Below are positions 40,973 to 41,431 of a stretch of 64,000 nt of DNA, piece by piece (position 1 is the stretch's first letter; every line of letters begins with the position of its first letter). Both the position numbers and the translations under genes were made by a program. The stretch is from the sequence record KX130862; one strand, 5' to 3'. This stretch comes from Shigella phage SHFML-26. The notes beneath the pieces were generated by a model. The model was not told the origin of the DNA and did not search any database. It saw only the letters and a program-made list of their open reading frames with translations.

Positions 40973-41431
40973 TTATTTTAAATCATCTGCCCAATCGAGT
41001 TTAAGAGGCTCTTTGTATTCACGATCTAATACGACCGGAATTTGTACATCACCGCTAAATGATAAGGGCCCAACATTATAAGACAATGTTATATGCGGTG
41101 TGTAATCATCAAAATCATGTGTAGCACCTAGTGCCCGCGCATACATGTGTCGACAGCGCAGATATTCAGAATCTAGCACAAGTACAAGAGTCGATCCATC
41201 TTGTGTTTTCCATACTTCTAAATGTCCAGAAGAAGCTACTTCAAAACTTCCGCTTGATGGAACATACGGAACATTTACTCTTGAATAACATATGGTCGAA
41301 TGAATTTTTTCTCTAGGAACTGGATTAGGAACACGTAAAGAGCGCTGGAGTTCTTCCAGCGCATCAAGTGTTAATTCTGAAAACTTAGCTGCTACATAAA
41401 GACCCGTTGAAAAGTCTTTAAATTCCATCAT
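40973..41431 (-). CDS. 57B: gp57B, 2H-phosphoesterase-like nuclease (Acb1 anti-CBASS family)
   Basis: 152 aa; two H-x-T/S motifs (HSTICY, HITLSY); located directly upstream of 57A as in T4. Confidence 0.75.

Follow-up and report, generated by a model that had tools for sequence, protein, structure and literature searches.

Gene 57B of Shigella phage SHFML-26 encodes the anti-CBASS phosphodiesterase Acb1, identical in protein sequence to that of phage T4

Introduction

We report that a gene of Shigella phage SHFML-26 (sequence record KX130862) is acb1, known in phage T4 as gene 57B, and that it encodes a metal-independent 2H phosphodiesterase that would cleave adenosine-containing cyclic di- and trinucleotides. 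We put the probability of this assignment at about 0.97, based on sequence evidence together with the published biochemistry of the T4 and FBB1 enzymes. The gene lies on the minus strand at positions 40973–41431 of the 64,000-nucleotide stretch of DNA that we analyzed (hereafter, the window), and its product is the already known and characterized enzyme itself, more than a homologue of it.

Acb1 was identified by activity-guided fractionation as the product of an 'uncharacterized T4 gene 57B', NP_049750.1 (Hobbs et al., 2022; PMC9117128); in the T4 reference genome, NP_049750.1 is the protein annotated at the 57B locus. T4 Acb1 hydrolyzes adenosine-containing cyclic di- and trinucleotides (3'3'-cGAMP and cUA as well as cAAA), and spares cGG, cA4, and the 2'-5' linkage of 3'2'-cGAMP (PMC9117128). 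On hosts with CBASS, growth of a T4 Δacb1 mutant is impaired >300-fold; where CBASS is lacking, its growth is normal. By HIDEN-SEQ, 57B is non-essential on E. coli K-12 and depleted on a CBASS host, that is, conditionally essential. Expression of 57B in T4 is middle/late, and a cyclic-nucleotide-degrading activity sets in ~15 min after the start of T4 infection. The assignment carries little weight as a discovery, the protein being the founding Acb1, characterized both biochemically and structurally. Its practical value lies in annotation and prediction, and many public records of acb1 still bear the label 'RNA ligase' or 'hypothetical protein'.

Results

The open reading frame begins with ATG and encodes 152 amino acids followed by a stop codon. 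An earlier note on this DNA had described it as a 152-residue product next to 57A, and the upstream neighbor is indeed a match to Pfam GP57 (PF17594, 168.4 bits). A small ambiguity attaches to the start: the gene opens with ATGATG, so the product has either 152 or 151 residues. An older T4 record (X03016) gives 57B as 151 residues, and homologues from other genera have a single Met at the 57B start.

In a pairwise alignment with the T4 reference protein (NP_049750.1), the acb1 product was identical at all 152 of 152 residues. At the DNA level, five sites differ from T4, in codons 28, 46, 55, 59, and 60; all are third-position and synonymous, which confirms the coding frame. That the T4 differences are solely synonymous also indicates that the gene is under purifying selection. 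The catalytic tetrad H44/T46/H113/T115 is complete, and the base stackers Y12, W74, F107, and W147 and the adenine-reading E141 are all present. H44 and T46 fall in the first 2H motif, HSTICY (residues 44–49; 41285–41302, minus strand), and H113 and T115 in the second, HITLSY (residues 113–118; 41078–41095, minus strand), their catalytic role having been published (PMC9117128). The C-terminal lid, LDWADDLK (residues 145–152; 40976–40999, minus strand), includes the base-stacking W147 (PMC9117128) and is the same as in T4.

The two H-x-T/S motifs pointed out in the earlier note are thus those of the published tetrad. On its own, however, the motif pair is weak evidence, since 16% of shuffled versions of the acb1 product also contain at least two H-x-[ST] motifs. 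We therefore rejected the pair as sufficient proof of identity; its significance comes from homology. In this respect the evidence is strong. The product matches the Pfam family of the anti-CBASS protein Acb1 (PF23474) with E = 2.7e-60 and a score of 202.7 bits, where the cut-off is 27, over profile positions 1–144 of 144. It also matches the structures of Acb1 from Erwinia phage FBB1 (PDB 7T26, apo, and 7T27, with 3'3'-cGAMP) at E = 4e-62 over residues 9–149, with 68% identity over 141 residues and one single-residue gap. By homology to 7T26, the product is assigned a compact 2H phosphoesterase fold. A single-sequence AlphaFold2 model had too low a confidence to be of use (pLDDT 37.9, pTM 0.31), and a search of NCBIfam returned no model matching either the Acb1 or the Acb2 of the window. 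The note's naming of the gene as gp57B/Acb1 of the 2H type accordingly holds residue for residue, and the alignment with T4 Acb1 that it had proposed as a check revealed no lost catalytic histidine. By contrast, its suggestion that the sequence be compared for specificity differences has nothing to gain: the window and T4 proteins are identical, so no difference from T4 is expected.

To place the active-site residues in the wider family, we aligned nine homologues from several Straboviridae genera, with identity down to 40%. They included FBB1 and seven from Mosigvirus, Jiaodavirus, Bragavirus, Krischvirus, Hadassahvirus, a Vibrio phage, and Pseudotevenvirus RB43, the seven being 86% to 40% identical. 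H44, T46, H113, T115, Y12, and E141 were invariant, positions 74 and 107 were aromatic throughout, and W147 was found in eight of the nine, being lost only in RB43. FBB1 Acb1, from a phage of another host genus, differs in about a third of its residues, yet it keeps the tetrad, Y12, E141, W147, and the lid; its replacements at W74 (to F) and F107 (to Y) are still aromatic. We also noted that 57B of RB43 (NC_007023.1, extracted locus 359–982) is 207 residues long, with a longer, unrelated C-terminus that is without the lid W147. Klebsiella phages of the KP27 type match the acb1 product over residues 10–127 only.

We weighed three other readings of the gene. Going by public annotation, the product would be of the 2'-5' RNA ligase (LigT) type and would act on RNA ends, as a ligase or in RNA repair: PHROG 755 has 'RNA ligase' as its description, this product name also stands in the RefSeq entry for T4 and in many other phage records, and there is a faint match to Pfam 2_5_RNA_ligase2 (residues 81–123, E = 0.11). 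The acb1 product and LigT-type phosphoesterases resemble each other at the superfamily level, in having the 2H fold and a pair of H-x-T/S motifs, whereas LigT-type enzymes act on a different class of substrate. The product is not a member of their family (PF13563), with a score of 13 bits, where the cut-off is 27, that comes from the second HxT region only, while the dedicated Acb1 family gives the far higher score reported above. Furthermore, biochemical work has shown that the identical T4 protein hydrolyzes cyclic oligonucleotides, genetic work has shown that it is needed against CBASS, and none of the papers we consulted reports a ligase activity. An enzyme of RNA ends is therefore extremely improbable. 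We rejected the 'RNA ligase' annotation, a label that reflects distant 2H-superfamily similarity only.

The historical name 57B, a start codon that overlaps the stop of 57A, and an adjacency to 57A that is kept across Straboviridae genera might instead suggest a tail-fiber assembly accessory working with the chaperone 57A. We give this idea almost no credence, as T4 Δacb1 grows like the wild type when CBASS is absent, 57B tolerates transposon insertion on E. coli K-12, and the product has an enzymatic 2H active site and no chaperone-like coiled coil. It is just as hard to believe that the window holds a decayed or inactive copy, for example one that escapes Panoptes. Natural disruption is known from Bas43, whose acb1 has a nonsense mutation, and acb1 of BYEP02 (OR757454.1) is frameshifted by a 77-bp tandem duplication; the gene here, however, is intact from ATG to stop, its protein is that of the active T4 enzyme, and its DNA changes are synonymous only. 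An intact acb1 encoding the T4 enzyme hence remains our reading. With regard to BYEP02, query positions 314–390 are repeated in the extracted locus (401–936), giving two open reading frames, and ATGATG is changed to ATAATG; this disruption would be either an inactivation that arose naturally, like that of Bas43, or an artifact of assembly.

The genomic setting is also that of T4, in which acb1 occupies the same place downstream of genes 1 and 57A with the same ATGA overlap. Gene 57A, the tail-fiber chaperone gene and upstream cistron, lies at 41428–41658, and gene 1 (dNMP kinase), the first cistron of the 1-57A-57B run, at 41658–42383, both on the minus strand; gene 1 was assigned from its open reading frame and the T4 annotation, the region being collinear with T4 at 97.7% identity. 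The stop codon of gene 1 overlaps the 57A start by 1 nt (junction TAATG), and the acb1 start overlaps the 57A stop in an ATGA at 41428–41431 (minus strand; sequence ...GAAGAATGATGG). Compared with its T4 counterpart, 57A carries V6I, R47H, and a four-residue C-terminal deletion (...ADEAKDEE in T4, ...ADEE in the window), while the adjoining acb1 is without amino-acid change. The order gp1-57A-57B was kept in the window and in 8/8 loci examined (T4 and seven phages of several genera), and the 57A/57B junction was overlapping or at most 2 nt apart in the window and in 6/7 other loci. In RB43, a gap of 58 nt separates the 57A-like gene from 57B.

Upstream of the acb1 start is GAAGA, a poor Shine-Dalgarno match. 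Taken together with the start overlap, this makes it probable that translation of acb1 is coupled to that of 57A. The gene would then be expressed as the third cistron of a coupled 1-57A-57B run from middle and late promoters. By pattern matching, we found a candidate MotA-box-like middle promoter, TGCTTCA-N12-TATAAT, upstream of gene 1 (42407–42432, minus strand) and a candidate second Mot-like pattern, TGCTTTA...TAAATT, inside gene 1 (starting at 41916, minus strand), both identical in T4. A T4 late-promoter-like TATAAATA, conserved in T4, lies inside gene 1 at 42014–42021 (minus strand), 356 nt upstream of 57A. We treat it as a candidate only, since the window contains no more such sites than chance would give (11 observed against 11.3 expected). 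These candidate promoters agree with the middle/late expression of 57B and the ~15 min onset of activity reported in T4. Within 40200–42700, a generic sigma-70 scan gave 12 promoter-like sites against 8.5 ± 2.6 in shuffled sequences, and a terminator scan gave one terminator-like site against 1.3, with no excess in either case. By pattern match, the only credible promoter-like sites in the scanned region appear to be two that lie inside repeated cassettes.

These cassettes belong to the region downstream of acb1, where the window and T4 part ways. T4 has ipI, which encodes an anti-GmrSD internal protein, downstream of acb1, whereas tblastn found no match to ipI in the window and two other internal-protein genes stand there instead. 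One is Ip5-like (85 residues; 40643–40900, minus strand; PHROG 3499) and the other Ip6-like (81 residues; 40330–40575, minus strand; PHROG 8111). A near-identical record, that of phage JB75, annotates the 85- and 81-residue genes as Ip5 and Ip6, and at least 288 phage records share this arrangement.

A 71-nt repeat of the PeSL type is present in three copies, one after each of acb1, ip5, and ip6 (40918–40988, 40588–40658, and 40287–40357, respectively; all on the minus strand). The copy after acb1 was defined by repeat family D1, a promoter scan, folding, and alignment with the T4 copies. Each cassette contains an early-promoter sequence, TTTACA-N17-TACTAT with a TG extension, and a stem-loop of 12–13 bp that encloses the -10 element. 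The promoter fits the PeSL consensus of the PST/T4 phage pair, TTTACW-N17-TAYWAT (PMC4122927). The stem-loops range from -17 to -18 kcal/mol, with z scores of -2.7 to -4.4; that after acb1 has 13 bp, -17.4 kcal/mol, and z = -3.45. On this pattern match, the cassette after acb1 carries a putative promoter that may drive the ip gene downstream. The 5' end of this cassette takes in the final five codons of acb1 together with its stop codon, and for this reason Acb1 and Ip5 both end in DLK. In an alignment, the T4 cassette after ipI resembles a chimera, its 5' half corresponding to the after-ip5 copy and its 3' half to the after-ip6 copy. These comparisons suggest that ip genes may be swapped by recombination within the cassettes.

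The window also encodes a homologue of Acb2 (T4 Vs.4) at 30301–30564 (minus strand), with 93% identity to T4 Vs.4 and a match to Pfam PF24729 (67 bits). Both known T4 anti-CBASS genes are therefore represented. Judged by its sequence, the window is from a T4-like Tequatrovirus distinct from T4. The block at 40866–45009 is 97.7% identical to T4, while neighboring blocks are 77–96% identical, and several T4 segments are missing or replaced. Over 1.6 kb around acb1, the closest records are Tequatrovirus isolates, for example UGKSEcP1 and UGKSEcP2, at 99.1%. The gene is matched by 558 phage records in a megablast search; of the 50,697 phage records searched by tblastn, 1,484 encode a homologue, and in 444 of these the amino-acid identity is ≥99%.

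Discussion

From the T4 and FBB1 work, the likely course of action of the enzyme can be set out. It would bind, and then cleave, cyclic di- and trinucleotides with one adenosine or more. Y12, W74, F107, and W147 would stack on the ligand bases, as published for the T4 and FBB1 enzymes (PMC9117128), and E141 would read the adenine N6, a contact, likewise published for these two enzymes, that would explain why one or more adenosines are needed. The lid of residues 145–152 would shut over the bound ligand (PMC9117128). Catalysis by H44/T46/H113/T115 would be of the metal-independent acid-base kind, in which the adenosine 2'-OH attacks the 3'-5' bond. Cleavage would take place 3' of adenosine and proceed via a 2',3'-cyclic phosphate to a linear 3'-phosphate product, for example GpAp. 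With 3'3'-cGAMP, cUA, cAAA, and cAAG removed, CBASS effectors would stay off, and the cell would not die before the phage finishes.

The same promiscuity would make the enzyme a potential trigger of Panoptes guard systems, which use decoy nucleotides. T4 Acb1 degrades 2'3'-c-di-AMP as fast as 3'3'-cGAMP, and plasmid-borne expression of the enzyme activates type I Panoptes; deletion of acb1 from T4 left type I Panoptes defense unchanged. T4 Acb1 without its lid no longer activated Panoptes, a result that the study's authors interpreted as a loss of catalysis (bioRxiv 10.1101/2025.08.21.671373). Type II Panoptes, whose signal is cA3, restricts Tevenvirinae phages with an intact acb1, and these escape by acb1 mutation. 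With an intact Acb1 and an Acb2 homologue, the phage should withstand many of the CBASS systems whose signals are cyclic di- or trinucleotides containing adenosine, and it should at the same time be liable to Panoptes-type guard systems that sense the loss of a decoy nucleotide.

Several other proteins are instructive in comparison. The viral 2H phosphodiesterase PDE-9 (9Q2G/9Q2Y, deposited as 'Anti-CBASS protein Acb1') belongs, like T4 Acb1, to 2H structural group 3 and degrades 3'3'-cGAMP. Its sequence match to the acb1 product is weak (E = 0.004), with both His motifs aligned. Its lid is N-terminal, whereas that of T4 Acb1 is C-terminal, and it leaves 2'3'-c-di-AMP largely intact and, unlike T4 Acb1, does not set off Panoptes. 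Acb2 serves the same purpose as Acb1, removal of the CBASS signal, but has an unrelated fold and sequesters the signal instead of cleaving it. The anti-Pycsar protein Apyc1, a Zn-dependent MBL phosphodiesterase that acts on cyclic mononucleotides, and the poxvirus poxins, which act on 2'3'-cGAMP, are both unrelated to Acb1 in fold and mechanism.

The tight and probably translationally coupled position of acb1 behind 57A, which recurs across Straboviridae genera, might serve a function and be more than a legacy of history: how much Acb1 is made, and when, could be tied to late morphogenesis, the phase in which cell-death responses by CBASS begin. As a second idea, the overlap with the PeSL cassette could make acb1 a fixed anchor of a recombination hotspot at which injected anti-restriction Ip genes are exchanged. 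We regard both proposals as speculative and unlikely.

Other parts of the window also depart from T4. By T4 alignment and tblastn, T4 ipII and ipIII have no counterpart at the denV-e junction (window ~32431–33077). The T4 alignment jumps there from 65359 to 66454, and a weak ipII-like tblastn match (33% identity) was seen at 32431–32640. A homologue of Tk.4 (macro-domain 'A1pp phosphatase') at 28152–28616 (minus strand) is 58% identical to T4 and far more diverged than its surroundings. The tRNA region of the window aligns to that of T4 at only 88% identity. Lastly, two stretches (11169–11427 and 47243–47494) match T4 segB, which codes for a GIY-YIG homing endonuclease, at ~69% identity, in places where T4 has other sequence.
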